DNA of 64,000 nt from Caulobacteraceae bacterium (GTDB lineage Bacteria > Pseudomonadota > Alphaproteobacteria > Caulobacterales > Caulobacteraceae): the NCBI GenBank assembly GCA_035493215.1, contig DATJIO010000007.1:15578-79577 (forward strand). The letters are read 5' to 3'. The position numbers and the translations under genes are program-made. Of the stretch, positions 42,520-50,788 are shown in pieces (position 1 is the first letter of the stretch; the number at the start of each line of letters is the position of its first letter). Below the pieces are notes generated by a model. That model did not search any database, had not been told where the DNA came from, and saw nothing but the letters and a program-made list of their open reading frames with translations.

Positions 42520-43254
42520 TCACCGGCGCCACGGAATCCGGTGGGACAGACGGATCGCGCCCTGGCCCATCTCGCAGCGATAGGCCAGCACCTCCACCCC
42601 TGCGCCTGCCGCATGGTCCAGGGCGGCGGCGAACACCGGATCGAGGTCGTGGCAGGCGGAGAAGGCGTCGCAATCCTCCCGCTGGACCGTGAACAGCACC
42701 ACCGCCCGGTCGCCGGCGGCGACCACCGTCTCCAGCTCGCGCAGGTGCTTGGCCGAGCGCGCCGCCACGCAGTCGGGGAACTCCGCCAGCGTCCCGCCGC
42801 GGCGCAGGTGGCAGTTCTTGATCTCCAGCCAGCAGGCCGGGCGGCCCTCGCCGGTCAGCAGGAAGTCGACACGGCTGTTGGTCCCGTACTTCACCTCGGC
42901 GCGCACGGTCTCGTAGCCGGCCAGCTCGGAGATCAGCCCTTCGCGCAGGGCCTCGGCGGCCAAGCGGTTCGGATGCATGGTGTTCAAGCCGACGGTTACG
43001 AACTCGCCGGAAATCTCGTTCGGAACGTCCACCAGTTCCCATGTGAAGGGCAGCTTCCGCTTCGGGCTGGGGTCGTGGGAGAGCCAGCACGTCAGGCCCG
43101 GCGTGTTCAGGCCGATCATCGCTCCGGGGTTCGGGCAATGGGCGGTGATGACTGACCCGTCCTCCAACTCGATGTCGGCGAGGAACCGCTTGTAGCGTTG
43201 GATCAGTCGGCCTCGGACGAGCGGAGTGGCGAACTGCATGGTAGCAGACATCAC
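42520..43254 (-). CDS. sfsA: Sugar fermentation stimulation protein SfsA (chimeric: native 3' part plus island-borne 5' part)
   Basis: 244-aa ORF with ...[30 protein letters not shown]... and an SfsA C-terminal nuclease-like domain. The likely true start is the ATG at 43239 (MQFATPL). Sequence 5' of about 42984 belongs to the island (see the mobile element). Confidence 0.88.
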
Positions 43255-43307
43255 GACCGGAGATGGCTCGGCAATGGCAGATTGGCGGCGTCCCCAGCGG
43301 GCGGGGC

Positions 43308-43607
43308 CTAATTGCCCGGTCGAGTCAGGAGCAATTCTAAGGCGTCCATATCGCGGAGCGGCTTCTCCGCGAACTCTCGTGGCGTCAGGATCGTGAGATC
43401 AAAGGCGACGCCGAGTCTCTCTCCAAGGTTGACGAAGGACCTTCGGATTTCATGTCCTTTCGCCAGTAGATCGGCGCGAGCGCAATCTACGACAATCACC
43501 AAGTCGATGTCCCGATAGCTCGCCTCCCCACGGAAGTAAGACCCCATACCGTAGAGGGCGGCGATTCCCTCAAGGCCCTCGGCCTCGCGTAGAATTTCCG
43601 TCCGCAT
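43308..43607 (-). CDS. Minimal nucleotidyltransferase (MNT, Pol-beta superfamily)
   Basis: 99 aa from ATG 43607. It has the GS-x9-DxD core ([22 protein letters not shown]) and a third acidic residue in AFDLTIL. The track ORF extends to 43742, but upstream of M46 it has no NTase-like sequence. Confidence 0.7.
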
Positions 43608-43980
43608 CGAGCTTGTCGTAATTCCAAAAATCGTCGGTGAACAGCGCGGGTATGATCTCGGCTCCGCGAAAAATCCCGATATGCCGATATTTGCAGAACT
43701 CAAGAGCTTCTTCGGTATATCCGTTCCAATTTCCCCCGACATATATGACGTTTACGCTCGGGAACGCGTCCAAGACCTTCATAACGAATTCAACGCCTGC
43801 CGAATATTCGTCCATACACGCGATAGTGAGGTGGTCGCCTTGCCTCGTGCGGTCCGCCTCAAAAATGAAGTCGTCGTGCCGTCGCACGCCGGTCAAGTTC
43901 CGGTGGCTTCCCAGAACCGATATGAGGTGACTGATCCGCGAGAAGGCGATCCCCCAAGAGTTGCTGCCGTTATCGTTCAC
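43570..43980 (-). CDS. Orphan 136-aa protein (alternating alpha/beta pattern, no recognised family)
   Basis: The GTG start at 43980 overlaps the HNH gene's TGA stop (GTGA). The 3' end overlaps the MNT start by 38 nt. A notable motif is VNVIYVGGNWNGYTEEALEF. Confidence 0.5.
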   Translation of the reverse strand: MNDNGSNSWGIAFSRISHLISVLGSHRNLTGVRRHDDFIFEADRTRQGDHLTIACMDEYSAGVEFVMKVLDAFPSVNVIYVGGNWNGYTEEALEFCKYRHIGIFRGAEIIPALFTDDFWNYDKLDADGNSTRGRGP

Positions 43981-44645
43981 TGGAACGCCTTCTCGAACTC
44001 GGCGGGAAACAAGGGGTAGCGATCTAAGCGGCTGTGAACGTGCCGCTCATAGGCGTCAGCGTGTGCCACGAACTTCCCATATGCTTCCACCTGTTCAGCG
44101 GTCAGAAGCCGCTGATTCGCCTGCACGATGTTCATGATCCTGCGGTTATTGGGAACGATACGATCTGCTCGCCGGAGTTCCCAAAGGCCGTGCAGATTTG
44201 ACCCCGGATCGCTCATGGCGGCCTCGGATTTCGGGCCATAGTTGGCCCATATGCTGCGGTTCTCGGTTAGTAGGAAGCGGACTCGGCCTGCGAGTTCCTC
44301 GTTCGATGAAAACAGTTCTTCTGACCCCAAATTTCGTGTGCGGTCTTCGTGTAGGAGTTTCCAGTGTCGGAGTTCCTCGGCGGGAAACGTGCCCGCTGGG
44401 GCCTTGTCCACATCCCGATGGCAGGTCGGGCATAGCAGGATGAGGTTGTCATAGCTGTCGCTTCCGCCGCCCGTGACGCCGCGCGGTCCTCCTTCAGCTT
44501 TGGCAATGACGTGTGCCATCTCGCCCACGATGTAGTGCTTCCCGCCTTCGATTAGCCGGGTGAGATCGGTGCCGCAGCCGGGGCGGGAACACGTGCCAGC
44601 CGCCCGACCCCAGAGGAGTTTTATGTCTGGGTCGGGGATAGCCAC
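43977..44645 (-). CDS. HNH endonuclease with about 130-aa C-terminal helical domain of unknown function
   Basis: 222-aa ORF with a GTG start preceded by GAGG at a 6-nt spacing. The zinc/HNH pattern is C19-x4-C24 ... EMAH45 ... YDN67LILLC72PTC75H76. Confidence 0.85.
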   Translation of the reverse strand: MAIPDPDIKLLWGRAAGTCSRPGCGTDLTRLIEGGKHYIVGEMAHVIAKAEGGPRGVTGGGSDSYDNLILLCPTCHRDVDKAPAGTFPAEELRHWKLLHEDRTRNLGSEELFSSNEELAGRVRFLLTENRSIWANYGPKSEAAMSDPGSNLHGLWELRRADRIVPNNRRIMNIVQANQRLLTAEQVEAYGKFVAHADAYERHVHSRLDRYPLFPAEFEKAFQ

Positions 44646-44841
44646 AATTCGCCTCGAACGTCTTCTGCCTGTGCTCGGACGGGCTTTAGCAGCATTTCCC
44701 GGTCATCATCTTCTCTCGGGATTGTCACGGAGTATCACCGATCATGGCCCCGCCAATGCGGGGTCGGAACCCGCCGGGGCGTATGACTGTCTGATGTGCT
44801 CGTTTCCCAATGCTGGTGCAGCGGAGAGGGAGGCGGTCGCA

Positions 44842-45372
44842 TCACCCCTCGGTCGGGAAGAAATCTTCCAGAAAGAGCATCGTCTCAGGGGCGGACGACG
44901 CATGTTGTTCCTTGGCGATGTAGAAGGCGAACCCGGCAGGATTGGCCGCGTCCGTTGTCCACTGCGAGCCACCAGCCCACACGTCAGACCACAAGCCGCG
45001 CTGGGTTGGCGGGAACATCTCACTGAACCGTTCGAGCCGCGCATGCTGAACCCGCAGCAAGCCGTGCGCGTGAAGGTTGGACTTCAGGTGCTCGAACATG
45101 AACACGCCCGTCGTGCGGTCATTTCGCCGCCGCGTGAACCGCCTTCCGAGCAGCTTGCGGTCCACCTTGCCGAAGCACTCGCCGATGGCCGACCGCGCGT
45201 TCGCCAGTGAGACCGGCCTGTTGAAGTTCAGCGTCATGGCGATGTTCAGCGTGGGATCGCTGAGCCAACGGCTGTAGGCTGAGCGGCGCGTCATGTTGAA
45301 GCGCGCCTTGAAATCGTCGTTCGGGAGCATGTTCTTTCCAAGTTGTTGGGTTTCTTGAGTGTAGTGAAGCAT
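44842..45372 (-). CDS. HUH-motif protein (rolling-circle Rep / Inovirus Gp2 (YagK/YfjJ)-like candidate)
   Basis: 176-aa ORF. Three motifs occur in canonical order: MTLNF (motif 1-like), NLHAHGLL (HUH) and FAFYIAKEQ (YxxK). The RBS is weak, so the start is uncertain. Confidence 0.45.
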   Translation of the reverse strand: MLHYTQETQQLGKNMLPNDDFKARFNMTRRSAYSRWLSDPTLNIAMTLNFNRPVSLANARSAIGECFGKVDRKLLGRRFTRRRNDRTTGVFMFEHLKSNLHAHGLLRVQHARLERFSEMFPPTQRGLWSDVWAGGSQWTTDAANPAGFAFYIAKEQHASSAPETMLFLEDFFPTEG

Positions 45373-45477
45373 GGTTAACCTATTTAGTCTAAGGGTTCAC
45401 GTTAGCGGTATGAATTCCTACCGGTCAAAATCATTCTGAGACGGTCTGGATAAATACCATCAGCAACGGAGGTAAGA

Positions 45478-45714
45478 ATGGTTGTCGGTGAGATTTACAA
45501 TGAGATGTTCGAGCGTGACCTGACGGACTCGATGCGAAGTTGGAGTGAGCAGTGGGCTGGGCGTTCTCACAACTTCGCCACGACTCACTGGGCGAAACCG
45601 CTACCTGCGGAGACCGCGATCCATCTGCGGAAGCGGCTGATCGCGGAAGGCCACCCGGACTTGGCGGCCAAGGTTCTGCTGGCCCTACTGGACGAGGTGC
45701 TTTATGCCGCATGA
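45478..45714 (+). CDS. Small hypothetical protein (78 aa)
   Basis: ATG is preceded by GGAGG at a 5-nt spacing. It is the first gene of the plus-strand cargo module. Confidence 0.5.
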   Translation: MVVGEIYNEMFERDLTDSMRSWSEQWAGRSHNFATTHWAKPLPAETAIHLRKRLIAEGHPDLAAKVLLALLDEVLYAA

Positions 45715-45919
45715 ACACGATCCGGCGCCAACGCCATTCAGCACTGAAGACTTGATGCTGAAAGGTCGGAACGGCGCGTTTCCAGACGGCTATCTGAATG
45801 CCTATCTGGCTCACCTGCGTCGTTCGCACGCCGCCGCCCAAGCGGAGATCGACCGCCTATTCGCCGAGGCGGCTGACGATCCCGCCGAGTTGGCGCGGCT
45901 CAGTGATCTCCGGTTCTGA
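45704..45919 (+). CDS. Small hypothetical protein (71 aa)
   Basis: The ATG overlaps the previous gene's end by 11 nt and is preceded by GAGG. The C-terminal half is helical. Confidence 0.4.
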   Translation: MPHEHDPAPTPFSTEDLMLKGRNGAFPDGYLNAYLAHLRRSHAAAQAEIDRLFAEAADDPAELARLSDLRF

Positions 45920-45930
45920 CGTGCGATCCG

Positions 45931-46200
45931 ATGCGCTACCGGGAGATCGTTGAGACGGGCGCCGGCGCCCAGATATGGAAGCAGACCGAGCGGGCTATGG
46001 ATGCCCTTCGGACGCTGCGCTCCAAACAGGCGAAGGTATCGGATGCGCGCGCTTCCGCTCGCGCACTGCCTACTGGTCAGGAACGGGCACGCCGTCTCCA
46101 CGCTGCGGATCGGAATGATGCCGATGCTCGCCGAGTCTACGGCGATGCGGTGAGCCGGGCGAATGATCGGGCGCGCGAAGCGATGGCGAAGCGTCGCTGA
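45931..46200 (+). CDS. Small basic helical hypothetical protein (89 aa)
   Basis: The ORF starts 12 nt after the previous stop. There is no clear RBS. Confidence 0.35.
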   Translation: MRYREIVETGAGAQIWKQTERAMDALRTLRSKQAKVSDARASARALPTGQERARRLHAADRNDADARRVYGDAVSRANDRAREAMAKRR

Positions 46201-46241
46201 CTTGTCGCCGCAACCGCGAGCTTAGGCTAAACGCGGTATCC

Positions 46242-47945
46242 GTGTTGGGGCATCGCAGAATGACCATGATTTCCGATCCTGCGATTTGCGGCAGCGGAGT
46301 GATAACCGGCGCCTTTCCAAGCCCGGACGGCAACGTGCTCGCAATAGCGAGCCGGTTTTCGCTTCTCGTAAATCCGCGTTCGAGGGCCTGCTACGCGGGC
46401 CAAACGCTCCACTACAGGCTTGCCCTCTATCGGCGCGGCGAGATCGTGCCTTTCGCCGCTTTTGATCGGCTCCGGTTCCACATCAACGACGTGGCCTTTC
46501 ACCCAACTGAACCGGTCGTTGCGATTGCGACCGGCAGCTACGACGGGGGGTATTGCTTCGAGGGCGATCTCGTTCTGTGGAACTGGATTGACGACCTGCA
46601 CGGTCGGCCAGTCGCGCAGATTCCCGAGGTGGTGCGCTGTCGCTTTGACGACTCAGGCGGGGCCGTCGAGTCCCTTGTCCGACCCTGGGACGAGGAATGG
46701 GAAGGGCTACCGGAGCCTCGTGAGGATACGGCGTTCGATAGCCTGTTCCCGGTTCGGATTCCCTACACAGGAGCAGCCTTCGCCGGAACGGATTCCGTCG
46801 AGATCGAGCTAACGCCGTGCAGCCGGCTCGAACGTGCTCAAGCAGTTGCCCATGGGTTCGCCGAGATCGCCACCGCCAACGCTGACGAGGCGGAATCGCG
46901 CGCATTGTCGTGGCTGAGCCTCCCTCATCAAAAGTTGAGGCACGCCATTCGGGACGTGGGCTGGCTGGACGACCAACATCTCGCCGTCGTCCATGACGGA
47001 TGCCTACTGGAAATCTTCGACATGACGGGAGATCGGACGGGCGCGTTCTACGGCGAGGGCTACGGCGCGGAGATTCTAAAATCGACTCCCCCGTGCGTTC
47101 ACATCGTTGAGCCGCCTTCGCTGGCAGACCGCTATTCGCCGCAGCGAGGTGTCGCCAAACTGTGCGCGATCTCCAATGGGGAGCTAACGGAGGTCGGCTC
47201 ATTTGAGGGGGAGTATACCTTCTCATCTTCCCCGAGCGGCCTTGTCCTTGGGCGGTTGAACCGCATCCCGACTGGCAACTCGACCAAGGATGTGTTGCTC
47301 GACTTGGTCGAAAGCGGAGAGGCCAAGAAGATTGATCTTGGGCACTACGATTGCTTCAACCACTACATCGGGATCGACGGGGCGCCCTACCTCTTCTTCC
47401 TCCAAGGAACTCCGCCATCCTCGCACAAGGACAAGCGGTTGTGCGTGGTTCAGCCGACCGGCGACGTGCGGACGCTGTGGCCGCTGTTGGCCGCTGACGG
47501 GACGAATGCAAGCCATGCCATGGAGTGCTGCGGCTGCTTTGTGGGCGACGGAGCGGGCGAGGGCGTTGTCGTCAGCGGCAGGCACTATGAGCCCAACCCT
47601 TCAAGGCCAGTCGCAGCGTTCATCTATCGCAAGGCGTTGGGCGCGGATCGGGAGTTATGGCGCCACGAGACCGATGCGTGCGCGAGTGCCGTCGCGTTTG
47701 TGGCCGACGAAGGATTGATCGCGGCGGCGTTCCTTGATGGAACGCTCATGCTGTTGCGCGCCTCTGACGGCCACATCTTGTTCGCGGGCAAGGCCCGGAT
47801 TGATGGTGTCCGCACGATCATCTTCTGCATGGATGCCAGCGGGGATCGTCTCGCGCTCGGCACGGTCGATGGCCGGATCGCAGTCGTCAGTGTGAAGGAC
47901 TTGCTGAACGATCCCCCACACGCGGGATGGTTCGAGCTTCGTTAG
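46242..47945 (+). CDS. WD40-like beta-propeller repeat protein (about 560 aa)
   Basis: WD-type blades sit at both ends: DVAFHPTEPVVAIATGSYDG...GDLVLWNW at the N-terminus, and AVAFVADEGLIAAAFLDGTLMLLRASDG and LALGTVDGRIAVVSVKDL at the C-terminus. The track start is a GTG at 46242; alternative ATGs lie at 46260 and 46266. Confidence 0.65.
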   Translation: MLGHRRMTMISDPAICGSGVITGAFPSPDGNVLAIASRFSLLVNPRSRACYAGQTLHYRLALYRRGEIVPFAAFDRLRFHINDVAFHPTEPVVAIATGSYDGGYCFEGDLVLWNWIDDLHGRPVAQIPEVVRCRFDDSGGAVESLVRPWDEEWEGLPEPREDTAFDSLFPVRIPYTGAAFAGTDSVEIELTPCSRLERAQAVAHGFAEIATANADEAESRALSWLSLPHQKLRHAIRDVGWLDDQHLAVVHDGCLLEIFDMTGDRTGAFYGEGYGAEILKSTPPCVHIVEPPSLADRYSPQRGVAKLCAISNGELTEVGSFEGEYTFSSSPSGLVLGRLNRIPTGNSTKDVLLDLVESGEAKKIDLGHYDCFNHYIGIDGAPYLFFLQGTPPSSHKDKRLCVVQPTGDVRTLWPLLAADGTNASHAMECCGCFVGDGAGEGVVVSGRHYEPNPSRPVAAFIYRKALGADRELWRHETDACASAVAFVADEGLIAAAFLDGTLMLLRASDGHILFAGKARIDGVRTIIFCMDASGDRLALGTVDGRIAVVSVKDLLNDPPHAGWFELR

Positions 47946-47970
47946 GCGACGGTATCACAGGCCATGGCCT

Positions 47971-48035
47971 TACGAGACCTTCGCACTGTGTCTCATTGAG
48001 GTGGATGCTTGACTTTTGAGACAATTAGTCTCACA
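47971..48035. promoter_or_regulatory. res-like cluster of GAGAC/GTCTC half-sites upstream of the resolvase gene
   Basis: The half-sites are CGAGACC (47973-47979), TGTCTCA (47989-47995), and TGAGACA (48017-48023) with AGTCTCA (48027-48033). The last two form the inverted repeat TGAGAC-AATTA-GTCTCA. The half-site resembles the Tn3/gamma-delta resolvase TGTCYNNTA consensus as I recall it. Confidence 0.35.
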
Positions 48036-48043
48036 AGGTCCCT

Positions 48044-48622
48044 ATGTCCAGTGAGAATATCAAAGCCGGTGCGGTCGTCGGATACGCCCGCACCTCGACC
48101 GGCGACCAAGATGCGGGTCTCGAAAGCCAGATCGCCGAACTGACGGCGGCGGGCTGCACGCGCGTCTTTTCGGAGAAGGTGTCGAGCGTCGATGCCGCGC
48201 GGCCCCAGCTTCATGCCGCGCTTCAGTTCCTGCGCGACGGCGACGAGTTCGTCTGCACCAAGCCGGATCGGCTTGCGCGCAGCACGACGGAACTGCTCCG
48301 TATCGTGGAAGACCTGACGGCGCGTGGGGTGCGCGTCCGCCTGCTGTCGATGAACATCGACACCAGCACCGCCACGGGCAAGCTGCTGCTGACGCTCATG
48401 GGCGCCGTGGCCGCGTTCGAGCGCGAGATCATGCTGGAACGCCAGCGCGCCGGGATCGCCAAGGCCAAGGCCGAAGGGAAGTTCAAGGGCCGGGCACCCA
48501 CGGCGCGCGCCAAGACCGCCGAGGTTCACCGGTTGATCTCAGCGGGCTGCAAGCCAGCGGAAATCATGAAGCTCACTAACATCAGCCGAGCGAGCTTCTA
48601 CCGGATCGCCAAGGCGGCGTGA
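48044..48622 (+). CDS. Small serine recombinase (resolvase/invertase family)
   Basis: 192-aa ORF with the catalytic-Ser context VGYARTSTGDQ, DRLARS, and a C-terminal HTH (AEIMKLTNISRASFYRI). Confidence 0.9.
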   Translation: MSSENIKAGAVVGYARTSTGDQDAGLESQIAELTAAGCTRVFSEKVSSVDAARPQLHAALQFLRDGDEFVCTKPDRLARSTTELLRIVEDLTARGVRVRLLSMNIDTSTATGKLLLTLMGAVAAFEREIMLERQRAGIAKAKAEGKFKGRAPTARAKTAEVHRLISAGCKPAEIMKLTNISRASFYRIAKAA

Positions 48623-48644
48623 TGGTGGGGCGCCGGCGCCCGTC

Positions 48645-50352
48645 CTACGCGGCCCTGAGCCGCCGGAAATAGGCTTCCATGCGGCTCCGGTTGCGGGGGC
48701 TGTCGATACCCTCAAGCATTTCGTCTGCGGTCGCGCCGGTGTTCGGATGGACTTCCCAAAGGGTCTGGCCATCGCGGTCGAAGGCGATCCGGTGAACGCC
48801 GCCCACCAGCACCATGACCGCGCTCATATCGCCCCATCCGTTGAAGCCGAACTCGACGGCCTCGACCACGCTGCGAACCGCGTCCGCCACCTTCGCCGGG
48901 CGGCGACGCGGGTCTCGTAGTCCTCGGCATATAAGGCGGTGCGGACTTCCAAGACGCGCTTGGCGTGCTCCTTAGGGCTGACCGCACCGCGAGCCACTTG
49001 CAGGGCCTTCTCATCCTTGCTGGCCTGCTCCTTGAGCGCGCGGATGGCAGCTTCGATCTCGGCCAACTCTTCCTGAAGAAGCTCGGATTCTTCCCGCGCG
49101 GCCAACGCCTTCATCAACCGCTTTGCCCCGGCTGTCTGATTTTCGATGGCGCGGTTCGTTTCGGCCAACCTGATCGCCAACGCCTGCGTCTGGTCGGGCT
49201 GCTGAAAGAACCTGTCGTCGAGCGCAAGGTGCAGCATCGCGTCGAGCGCAGCCGTCTCGAATGGCCTGTAGGGGAAGAGCTTGCGCTGTCCGCAGCCCCG
49301 GCGCCCGTAGGCGTTCAGGCATTGCAGATAGCGGGCGGGTTTCGCGGCGTTGCCGACCAATCCCATGCGTCCGCCACATGCCCGGCAGACAACGAGGCCG
49401 GTGAACAGGTTCGAGAACTGGTCGCGCTTGCGACCGCCAGTGCCCTTGCGGGCGGCGACGGCGGCGCGGGCGCGGCCACGAGATCAGCATAAACGATCCG
49501 GGGGAAGTAGCCGACGATCCGCTCGCCGGTCTTCTCGCGGTTTCGGCGGCGGCCAATCCCCGGTTCGAGGTCGCCCTCGACCGCCGAGGATTTCAGGATG
49601 TCGCCGATGTAGCTGTGCTCCCAGCCGACGCGGATGGACTTCCGATGATGGAAGGTGCGTCCCCACGGCTTCACCTTGCGGTCGTTGAGGGCCTGCATGA
49701 TGGCCCGCGCTCCCGCGCCCGCAGCGGCCAGTTCGTAAATCTGCACCACGACGGCGGCACGTTCGGTGATCGGGCGGAACTTGCGAACGCCGCCATCGTC
49801 GAAGACTTCCAGCCAGCCGGGCGCGTGGGCGGAAATCAGGTAATTGGACTCGGCAGCCTTCTTGCGGTTGCCGACCCAAGCCGATTTCACCCTGATGCTG
49901 ATCGTCTCGGAAAGTTGGTTGGCGACGATGCCCTGCATGAACAGATTCATGATGGCCTGCATCTGGGCCGGATTGGCCGAAGAAAGGGCCTTCTCGTCGT
50001 AGAATCCGCCATCCATCGACGTTGCAATGGTTAGGCCGTGGCGGGTCATTTCGCGCAGCCAATCGACCGCAGCCCAAACGTCCTGACGGCTCAGCCTGTC
50101 GAGCTTCTCGACGCAAAGGATCGAACCGGCTTCGATCTCACCGGCGCGCACGCGATTGGCGAAGTCGCCAAGCTCTCCGCTCGTGAGATTGTCGCCCTTC
50201 CACGCGCTGACTCCCGTGTCGGCGAACTCGTCGGCGACTTCCCAGCCTTGCCGTTCACAGTAGGCGAGGTTGTCGCGCTGCTGTCGTTCGAGGCTGTCGC
50301 CCTTCTCCTGCTTCGCGGAAGAGAACCGGCAGTAGATGTAGGCTTTCGTCAT
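48645..50352 (-). pseudogene. Large serine recombinase (integrase) interrupted by two frameshifts
   Basis: The gene spans three consecutive minus-strand frames. (1) 49315-50352 encodes the resolvase domain (YIYCRFSSAKQ..., DRLSRQ) and a recombinase domain. (2) A frame open from about 49483 encodes ...RKGTGGRKRDQFSNLFTGLVVCRACGGRMGLVGN...YLQCLNAYGRRGCG (zinc ribbon) and a coiled coil. (3) 48645-48890 encodes the C-terminal tail. The frame changes fall near 49450-49483 and 48880-48910, both in GCC-rich runs. Confidence 0.8.
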
Positions 50353-50482
50353 TTCGCGCCCGCTGTGACCGGGCGCATCCAACGCGCCCATATATGTCGT
50401 CTCACGGAATCCGAATCCGTCAACCAAATAGGGTGGTTAACGAGTTTGGCCCCTGTGGGTCGGGCGTGTTCGTAACAGGCGA

Positions 50483-50734
50483 CTAAAGGGTGTTGACCCC
50501 GACCAGCCCGCCGTCGACCTCGACCAGCTCCAGGGTGTGGGCGAGCTTGCGCTTCGGGTCGGCCGACTTCGACAGCCAGACGTCCAGGCCCGGCCTGTTC
50601 AGCCCCAGCATGGCGCCGGGGTTGGGCACGTGGGCGGTCACGGTCTCGCCGGACTCTTCCAGCACCACGTCGGCGAGGAACCGCTTGTAGCGCTGGATCA
50701 GGCGGCCGCGCACGAGCGGTTGCGGGAAGTCCAT
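50483..50734 (-). pseudogene. sfsA: Displaced native 5' fragment of sfsA (83 codons, then stop at the island junction)
   Basis: [43 protein letters not shown]...LVGVNTL* is about 60-65% identical to the N-terminus of the intact copy at 42520-43254. The reading frame ends 2 codons past the GGTGTT junction. Confidence 0.85.
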
Positions 50735-50788
50735 GGGCCGCCTACTCACAGGGCTTGGGGCGATGAGCCGGGATAGGGAAATCGCGCG

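Follow-up and report, generated by a model that had tools for sequence, protein, structure and literature searches.

A three-gene cassette that joins a Cap5/SPARHA-type HNH protein to a minimal nucleotidyltransferase: a candidate conflict module in a Caulobacteraceae bacterium

Introduction

Few genes are more abundant on mobile elements than those for minimal nucleotidyltransferases (MNTs). To our knowledge, HEPN is the only MNT partner that has been characterised mechanistically. In these HEPN-MNT pairs (type VII, HepT/MntA) the MNT gene stands first. Here we describe a cassette of three overlapping genes, coding for an HNH protein, a middle protein which we call MID, and an MNT. It lies at positions 43,308 to 44,645 of a 64,000-nucleotide stretch of DNA from a Caulobacteraceae bacterium (assembly GCA_035493215.1, contig DATJIO010000007.1, positions 15,578 to 79,577 of the forward strand). 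We refer to this whole stretch as the window, and its first letter is position 1. In HEPN-MNT pairs the MNT neutralises the toxin by transfer of a nucleoside monophosphate onto the toxin (PMC11586414).

The other described relatives are found on the side of the nuclease. Cap5 is the HNH-SAVED protein of CBASS, and SPARHA is a short-Argonaute system (short pAgo and HNH-APAZ), the HNH effector of which is available as structure 9om4. The HNH domains of SPARHA and Cap5 superimpose and dimerise via an N-terminal helix, and they are active double-stranded DNA (dsDNA) nucleases only upon tetramerisation or filament formation. A 'bridge' glutamate is placed three residues ahead of the catalytic histidine. 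The SPARHA effector is activated by oligomerisation and performs collateral cleavage of dsDNA (PMC12738770).

Results

The three genes are inherited as a unit

An earlier note, prepared from the letters of the window, had described three open reading frames (ORFs) on one strand, a TGA stop of the HNH gene overlapping the GTG start of MID, and a 38-nucleotide (nt) overlap between the end of MID and the ATG of the MNT. The ORF list and the sequence bore out all of this, coordinates included. The MNT start codon is at 43605-43607 and the MID stop codon at 43570-43572. The cassette has a total length of 1.34 kb and consists of the following elements.

43977..44645, minus strand: gene 1, HNH protein, 222 amino acids (aa), GTG start and TGA stop (ORF list)
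43570..43980, minus strand: gene 2, MID, 136 aa, alpha/beta, without an annotated family, GTG start (ORF list)
43308..43607, minus strand: gene 3, MNT, 99 aa, ATG start
43977..43980, minus strand: GTGA overlap of 4 nt between the HNH stop and the MID start, read from the sequence (plus strand TCAC)
43570..43607, minus strand: out-of-frame overlap of 38 nt between the MID 3' end and the MNT 5' end

Scans of the region for promoters, terminators and Rfam families gave nothing informative.

We scanned one genome per GTDB species (~185,000 species genomes) with patterns derived from the HNH family and obtained 139 confirmed relatives. Eighty loci were fetched and, together with two close metagenomic relatives, gave a set of 82 loci. 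MID was located directly 3' of the HNH gene in 77 of them (75 were detected by tblastn and two more by hidden Markov models, HMMs). Five loci lacked MID: in two of them the contig ended, two had a truncated remnant of the HNH gene, and one had an unrelated architecture. Wherever the sequence extended far enough, the end of MID was overlapped by a third ORF, which stopped ~240-290 nt later. The MNT HMM matched this ORF in 71 of 73 loci, and one locus added later brought the number of MNTs, with GS and DxD invariant, to 72. Where the full trio was not seen, the reason was a contig end, a decayed or frameshifted copy, or the one unrelated architecture. In 70 of 71 loci MID and MNT overlapped in the same relative frame; the overlap was ~40-70 nt long in most loci compared with 38 nt in the window. 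It encodes both the C-terminal tail of MID and, in another frame, the N-terminal helix of the MNT.

The hosts include Alpha-, Beta- and Gammaproteobacteria, Acidobacteriota, Bacillota, Planctomycetota, Verrucomicrobiota, Ignavibacteria, Spirochaetia and Desulfobacterota, and the distribution of the 139 matches across these phyla is patchy. A MID subfamily of ~25% identity, in the same trio, was observed in Photorhabdus, Rhizobium, Pikeienuella, Vogesella and one metagenomic contig. Pairwise distance matrices of HNH, MID and MNT were correlated (r = 0.72-0.78, Mantel p <= 0.001). The MNT was the fastest-evolving of the three proteins (mean pairwise identity 28%) and the HNH protein the slowest (48%); an antitoxin evolving faster than its toxin is the usual pattern. 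We also observed fusions of HNH with MID (P0161) and of MID with MNT (P0135, P0171, P0240), from which we infer that the cassette proteins form a physical complex. We did not observe a fourth conserved gene when 140 neighbouring ORFs from 35 loci were scanned with Pfam and PADLOC.

One variant protein, P0242 (L091:1278-2742), consists of a weak XRE-type helix-turn-helix (HTH), the helical domain described below and MID. The nuclease is absent, and an 89-aa MNT gene is located downstream. This variant, known from a single metagenomic contig, suggests that the helical domain, MID and MNT are the conserved core of the cassette. The gene for P0242 adjoins a Dam-type methyltransferase gene.

The cassette is therefore inherited as a unit across many phyla. 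Co-localisation in other genomes, on which the earlier note had made its proposal depend, was seen in essentially every genome with any one of the genes, together with co-divergence and occasional fusions. The same data dispose of the view that three unrelated genes adjoin by chance, or that the ORFs were mis-called. Order, overlaps and co-divergence are conserved in at least 70 loci of many phyla, nothing is left in favour of such a view, and its probability is negligible.

The HNH protein has an effector-type nuclease domain and a helical domain of its own

Gene 1 codes for two domains.

44331..44645, minus strand: HNH nuclease domain, residues 1-105, assigned to the Cap5/SPARHA effector clade (PADLOC and PDB matches)
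43980..44330, minus strand: all-helical C-terminal domain, residues 106-222 (AlphaFold2 model; no PDB or Pfam match)

The nuclease domain matched the Pfam HNH family PF01844 (28.8 bits at a cut-off of 21.4, E = 1.3e-6). The zinc-HNH core had been read from the translation before, and all seven residues were found at the positions given for them, with C19, C24, C72 and C75 as zinc ligands and H45, N67 and H76 as catalytic residues. The domain thus has a structural zinc site made of two cysteine pairs. It also has an N-terminal helix, LWGRAAG, and a glutamate, E42. In 43 HNH homologues C19, C24, H45, N67, C72 and H76 were invariant, while C75 was sometimes replaced by H or D. The LWGRAAG dimerisation helix was invariant among the homologues as well. 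There were more than 666 full-length homologues, with 40-84% identity. Those beginning with MAIS-D-KLLWGRAAG back the GTG start and the length of 222 aa. The annotation deposited with the metagenome-assembled genome starts the gene at Met43 (180 aa), which is 42 codons too short. The missing part is 44520-44645 on the minus strand, and with it the N-terminal helix and the zinc ligands C19 and C24 are dropped.

We compared the domain with described effectors. In PADLOC, the SAVED-HNH (Cap5) models (2e-23) and PDC-M68A (3.4e-23) were matched over residues 3-110 only, and the SAVED-HNH effectors were the top matches. A profile of the 43 homologues matched six sequences only in the PDB, namely 9om4 (1e-28, over residues 1-129) and five Cap5-type chains (1e-14 to 1e-18); among the Cap5 structures, 7rwk and 8fm1 matched the domain at 1e-17 to 1e-18. 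The GEMAH segment of the HNH protein aligns with GEIAH, and the 'bridge' glutamate motif E42-x-x-H45 is kept. Judged by sequence, the HNH domain is a member of the Cap5/SPARHA immune-effector clade, with its catalytic residues intact.

The match to Cap5 and SPARHA ends at approximately residue 110-130, and neither SAVED nor APAZ was detected in the protein. The C-terminal part, of ~130 aa, had been called helical and unplaceable in the earlier note, and our analysis agrees with both. AlphaFold2 modelled residues 110-222 with a predicted local distance difference test score (pLDDT) above 90 and helices at 115-136, 151-176 and 183-204. The invariant residues of this domain are L126, N129, G137, P138, S140, A143, W155, P165, N166, N167, F192, H195, P214 and F217. 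No match was obtained in the PDB (profile search, E <= 10), in Pfam (E <= 5) or among NCBIfam families, and a Foldseek search of the PDB with the model of the HNH protein gave a best E of 2.8 for this domain. We considered HEPN and KNTase_C as identities of the domain and rejected both at the sequence level, as the same Pfam and PDB profile searches were empty. The domain does not have an invariant R...H pair of the kind found in the Rx4-6H motif of HEPN.

MID is a widespread family with a possible restriction-endonuclease-like fold

MID had been called an orphan alpha/beta protein. The alpha/beta part of this description stood, since the AlphaFold2 model (pLDDT 87, predicted template modelling score 0.82) has the topology a-bbb-a-b-a-b-a. 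The orphan part did not. A word-indexed search gave only six proteins, which was a sensitivity artefact, as became clear from HMMER and from tblastn on the loci; an exhaustive HMMER search gave at least 118 representative clusters at 50% identity. We did not obtain any match to MID in Pfam, NCBIfam, PADLOC, PHROG or the PDB.

The best Foldseek matches of the model (PDB, BFVD) were the N-terminal domain of Rpb5, an Mrr-type restriction endonuclease and phage endonuclease I. They were weak and below significance (E = 1e-3 to 3e-2, TM-scores 0.35-0.49). The catalytic D...(D/E)xK was not found in the MID alignments, as acidic positions vary and there is no conserved lysine. The model suggests that MID has a restriction-endonuclease-like fold without these catalytic residues. 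In the comparison with PD-(D/E)xK enzymes, the position after strand 3 is an invariant tyrosine. This residue, Y59 (43804-43806), is the sole invariant residue in alignment A2. Alignment A3 adds M1, H26, G62, G102 and W119, and none of these is acidic or a lysine.

The third gene codes for a minimal nucleotidyltransferase

43503..43544, minus strand: catalytic motif of the MNT, G22-S23-x9-D33-x-D35 (alignment A8)

That gene 3 is a 99-aa MNT with a GS-x9-DxD motif, as had been proposed, was confirmed. G22, S23, D33 and D35 were invariant in 42 orthologues (alignment A8). The match to the Pfam family NTP_transf_2 (PF01909) reached 21 bits, which is exactly the gathering cut-off, and the profile of the 42 orthologues matched known MNT structures in the PDB, namely 2rff (3e-6), MntA (5yep/6m6v, 1e-4), AF0614 and HI0073.

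The start of the MNT differs among loci. In most loci an ATG precedes the GS motif by ~30 codons, and the start is ~9 codons further upstream in most orthologues than in the window, where no canonical start codon exists at that place. The length of 99 aa is the best available call. In about five loci (L008, L012, L044, L056 and L074) the 36 codons that precede the GS motif contain no ATG, GTG or TTG. Translation of the MNT may in such cases begin at a non-canonical codon or depend on a +1 frameshift. Prompted by the start-less loci and by the fusions, we considered a programmed frameshift from MID into MNT, which needs a rare +1 shift. On the Klebsiella pneumoniae plasmid pS141.1 (L089:8020-8304) RefSeq gives the third gene as a 61-aa 'hypothetical protein', which is too short. 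Translation of this region shows an intact MNT of ~100 aa overlapping MID (HMM E = 9e-32).

The cassette differs from named systems

The earlier note could not match the architecture to any named anti-phage or toxin-antitoxin system, and this held in PADLOC-DB v2, Pfam, NCBIfam, RefSeq annotation and the searchable literature. In PADLOC-DB v2 none of 37 diverse MID members was matched, the MNT matched only generic single-gene MNT candidates (PDC-S09), and the HNH protein matched only via its nuclease domain. RefSeq labels both MID and MNT as 'hypothetical protein'. The cassette is unnamed in the libraries searched, a scope that does not extend to PADLOC and DefenseFinder releases after 2023.

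The HEPN-MNT pairs are similar in having an MNT of ~100 aa with GS...DxD, in a tightly coupled operon with a nuclease and on mobile DNA. MntA and other MNTs are the closest solved relatives of the cassette MNT, and by analogy the logic of an enzyme antitoxin that modifies its partner may be shared. The putative toxin of the cassette is, however, an HNH DNase with a novel helical domain and not a HEPN RNase with Rx4-6H, and MID is a third, obligatory protein. In agreement with what had been noted earlier, no HEPN Pfam match was obtained for any cassette protein.

Cap5 shares with gene 1 the homologous HNH domain, including the N-terminal helix and the zinc and catalytic residues. Unlike CBASS, the cassette has no SAVED and no CD-NTase. 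The partner is a 99-aa MNT instead, and the C-terminal domain of the HNH protein is helical and unrelated. The window proteins gave no match to a CBASS cyclase, and none of them was found to be a CD-NTase (~300 aa). Among solved structures, the SPARHA effector 9om4 is the best relative of the HNH domain, and the E-x-x-H motif is shared. It differs by APAZ, which the cassette does not have, and by Argonaute, which was found neither in the cassette operon nor in its neighbourhood. We also rejected PDC-M68 of PADLOC as a name for the cassette. The N-terminal HNH domain matches PDC-M68A, but only positions 5-115 of the 253 in the model align, and no PDC-M68 model is matched by the MNT or by any of the 37 MID members. 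Mrr-type and other PD-(D/E)xK proteins, as well as the N-terminal domain of Rpb5, weakly resemble MID in the predicted a-bbb-a-b core, and the conserved catalytic D/(D/E)xK of the former is missing from it. Taken as a nuclease toxin or defence module partnered with an MNT, the cassette is not categorically unprecedented.

The cassette is carried by an integrative island

The low-GC, mobile location given in the earlier note was substantiated by the GC dip, by two serine recombinases and by a duplicated 5' end of sfsA. The features of the island and its edges are as follows.

43005..50495, no strand: integrative island of ~7.5 kb that carries the cassette (GC dip; Pfam Resolvase, Recombinase and SfsA_N matches)
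42520-43254, minus strand: sfsA, intact
about 50495-50735, minus strand: remnant of the sfsA 5' end, adjoining the upstream CinA-like gene
48044-48622, plus strand: small resolvase (Pfam Resolvase)
49315-50427, minus strand: serine recombinase, 370 aa (Pfam Recombinase)
46242-47945, plus strand: 567-aa protein with only sub-threshold WD40/beta-propeller matches
44842-45372, minus strand: 176-aa orphan directly upstream of the HNH gene and on the same strand

GC content is 58-60% at 43-46 kb and ~70% in the flanks. Approximately 240 bp of sfsA are duplicated (73% DNA identity), so that the first ~80 codons, which code for the SfsA_N OB domain, are present twice. The element interrupts sfsA and supplies a replacement for these codons. 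The genes for the 567-aa and 176-aa proteins are not conserved beside the trio in other loci.

In other hosts the trio was found on a conjugative Klebsiella plasmid, among transfer genes of the type known from integrative and conjugative elements, and on a mobilisable Acinetobacter plasmid, among insertion sequences. Elsewhere it adjoins GmrSD, SIR2-HerA, a Septu-like AAA_15/HNH pair, a PLD-SNF2 restriction-modification gene and Panacea-domain genes. One locus, L094:1-12148, is a typical defence island. Its genes upstream of the trio are Eco57I-like, PLD-SNF2 helicase, DUF3800 and SocA_Panacea, and downstream there is a Septu-like pair of an AAA_15/AAA_21 ATPase and an HNH protein. We found no DNA-level match to the Klebsiella copy in complete E. 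coli genomes. Culturable hosts of the trio include Pseudomonas fluorescens, Photorhabdus luminescens, Stutzerimonas stutzeri and Paenibacillus, in addition to the Klebsiella plasmid.

Discussion

We favour the reading that the cassette is a self-contained conflict module, in which the HNH protein is the effector and MID and MNT are its regulators, and we estimate its probability at approximately 0.7. The main rival is a signalling arrangement similar to CBASS or OAS. Here MID or the helical domain would sense infection and the MNT would make an (oligo)nucleotide signal; bound by the helical domain or by MID, this signal would drive oligomerisation of the HNH protein. The HNH domain is indeed of the same type as in Cap5, which is activated by cyclic nucleotides, and the sensor domain attached to this HNH type is exchangeable (SAVED, APAZ, the helical domain). 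The MNT, with its invariant catalytic residues, and the CD-NTases both belong to the Pol-beta superfamily. However, at 95-110 aa it is without the extra domains by which CD-NTases and OAS hold both substrates, and the PADLOC cyclase model gave a weak match (4e-5) for only 1 of the 42 MNT orthologues. The fusions, which occur in both directions, and the fixed overlaps of the genes speak for a complex of set stoichiometry and not for a diffusible signal. Moreover, neither the helical domain nor MID resembles a known nucleotide sensor such as SAVED or CARF. Because of the minimal size of the MNT, the fusions and the overlaps, we consider signalling unlikely.

Type IV-like restriction seems to us less probable again. 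In such a system modified or foreign DNA would be recognised by the helical domain, by MID or by both, and the HNH nuclease would be guided to it; the MNT would have an accessory part, in tuning or protection. Modification-dependent restriction enzymes are numerous among dimeric HNH nucleases (PMC12738770), and MID weakly resembles Mrr-type folds. GmrSD or restriction-modification genes adjoin the cassette in some loci, there is the Dam-type methyltransferase in L091, and an HTH takes the place of the HNH domain in one variant. On the other hand, the nearest relatives of this HNH domain are Cap5 and SPARHA, which are collateral-damage effectors, and not McrA, SRA or EVE enzymes, no known reader domain for DNA modification was detected with Pfam, and MID has no conserved D...(D/E)xK. 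Restriction also gives no role to an MNT which is invariant and catalytically intact. A function outside conflict is, in our estimate, rather improbable. The genes could form a DNA-processing or repair module (in which DNA is nicked or cut and nucleotides are added), or they could be a selfish HNH gene of the homing type and its two accessories. HNH genes are common in homing elements, and several loci have housekeeping neighbours only (EPSP synthase, ThiC, LepA). Against this stand the patchy, horizontally shaped distribution, the carriage on plasmids and islands, the immune effectors that make up the HNH clade, and the solved relatives of the MNT family, which are antitoxins of toxin-antitoxin systems. 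We also did not observe phage copies (none in 50,697 phage genomes) or intein or intron contexts.

Several observations weigh against the favoured explanation, its proposed mechanism included. HEPN is absent from the cassette, and the gene order, toxin first and MNT last, is the reverse of that in HEPN-MNT pairs. In the MNT, the position of the third metal-binding carboxylate is taken by either Asp or His and is thus not strictly conserved. The AlphaFold2 model of the HNH domain is poor, with pLDDT below 50 at residues 30-67. Tyr59 of MID is suggestive but could be structural, and nucleotidylylation of MID or of the HNH protein is argued from analogy. Defence islands house the trio at several loci; its neighbours at many loci are housekeeping genes, so enrichment in defence islands is no more than a possibility. 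The absence of phage copies may be counted here too, although it is neutral evidence.

Within the conflict module, we infer how the products associate, which way regulation runs, what is modified and which phenotype results, as follows. The three products would act as one complex. The effector would be the product of gene 1, a non-specific dsDNA nuclease that is inactive until it oligomerises, on which the helical domain would replace SAVED or APAZ. MID may be a non-catalytic adaptor with a restriction-endonuclease-like fold, bridging the helical domain and the MNT. By analogy with HEPN-MNT, the MNT may nucleotidylylate a partner, and this modification would hold the nuclease inactive. Candidate acceptors are Tyr59 of MID, as the first choice, and some residue in the HNH protein. 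If the modification or the MNT were lost (upon phage infection, collapse of the nucleoside triphosphate pool, or loss of the plasmid or island), the HNH domains would be freed, oligomerise and degrade DNA, leading to abortive infection or post-segregational killing. The cassette may thus serve defence or addiction. The direction of control, in which the MNT keeps the DNase off as in type VII, is a tentative analogy to which we give somewhat less than even odds. The same caution applies to the full proposal, an undescribed tripartite immune or addiction system in which the MNT, via MID and the helical domain, controls the HNH DNase by nucleotidylylation; we regard it as possible, and short of probable.

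In summary, the helical domain and MID are defined here as two domain families with no entry in Pfam or the PDB. With the cassette, the HNH effector of the Cap5/SPARHA type has a third kind of control platform besides SAVED and APAZ/Argonaute. Since the cassette is compact and occurs in culturable hosts and on a Klebsiella plasmid, the hypothesis is directly testable. If it is true, the helical domain, MID and MNT are an exchangeable regulatory core, and the type VII principle of an enzyme antitoxin is extended from HEPN RNases to DNases. An obligatory, phylum-spanning pairing of MNT and DNase would make control by MNTs a more general regulatory principle.

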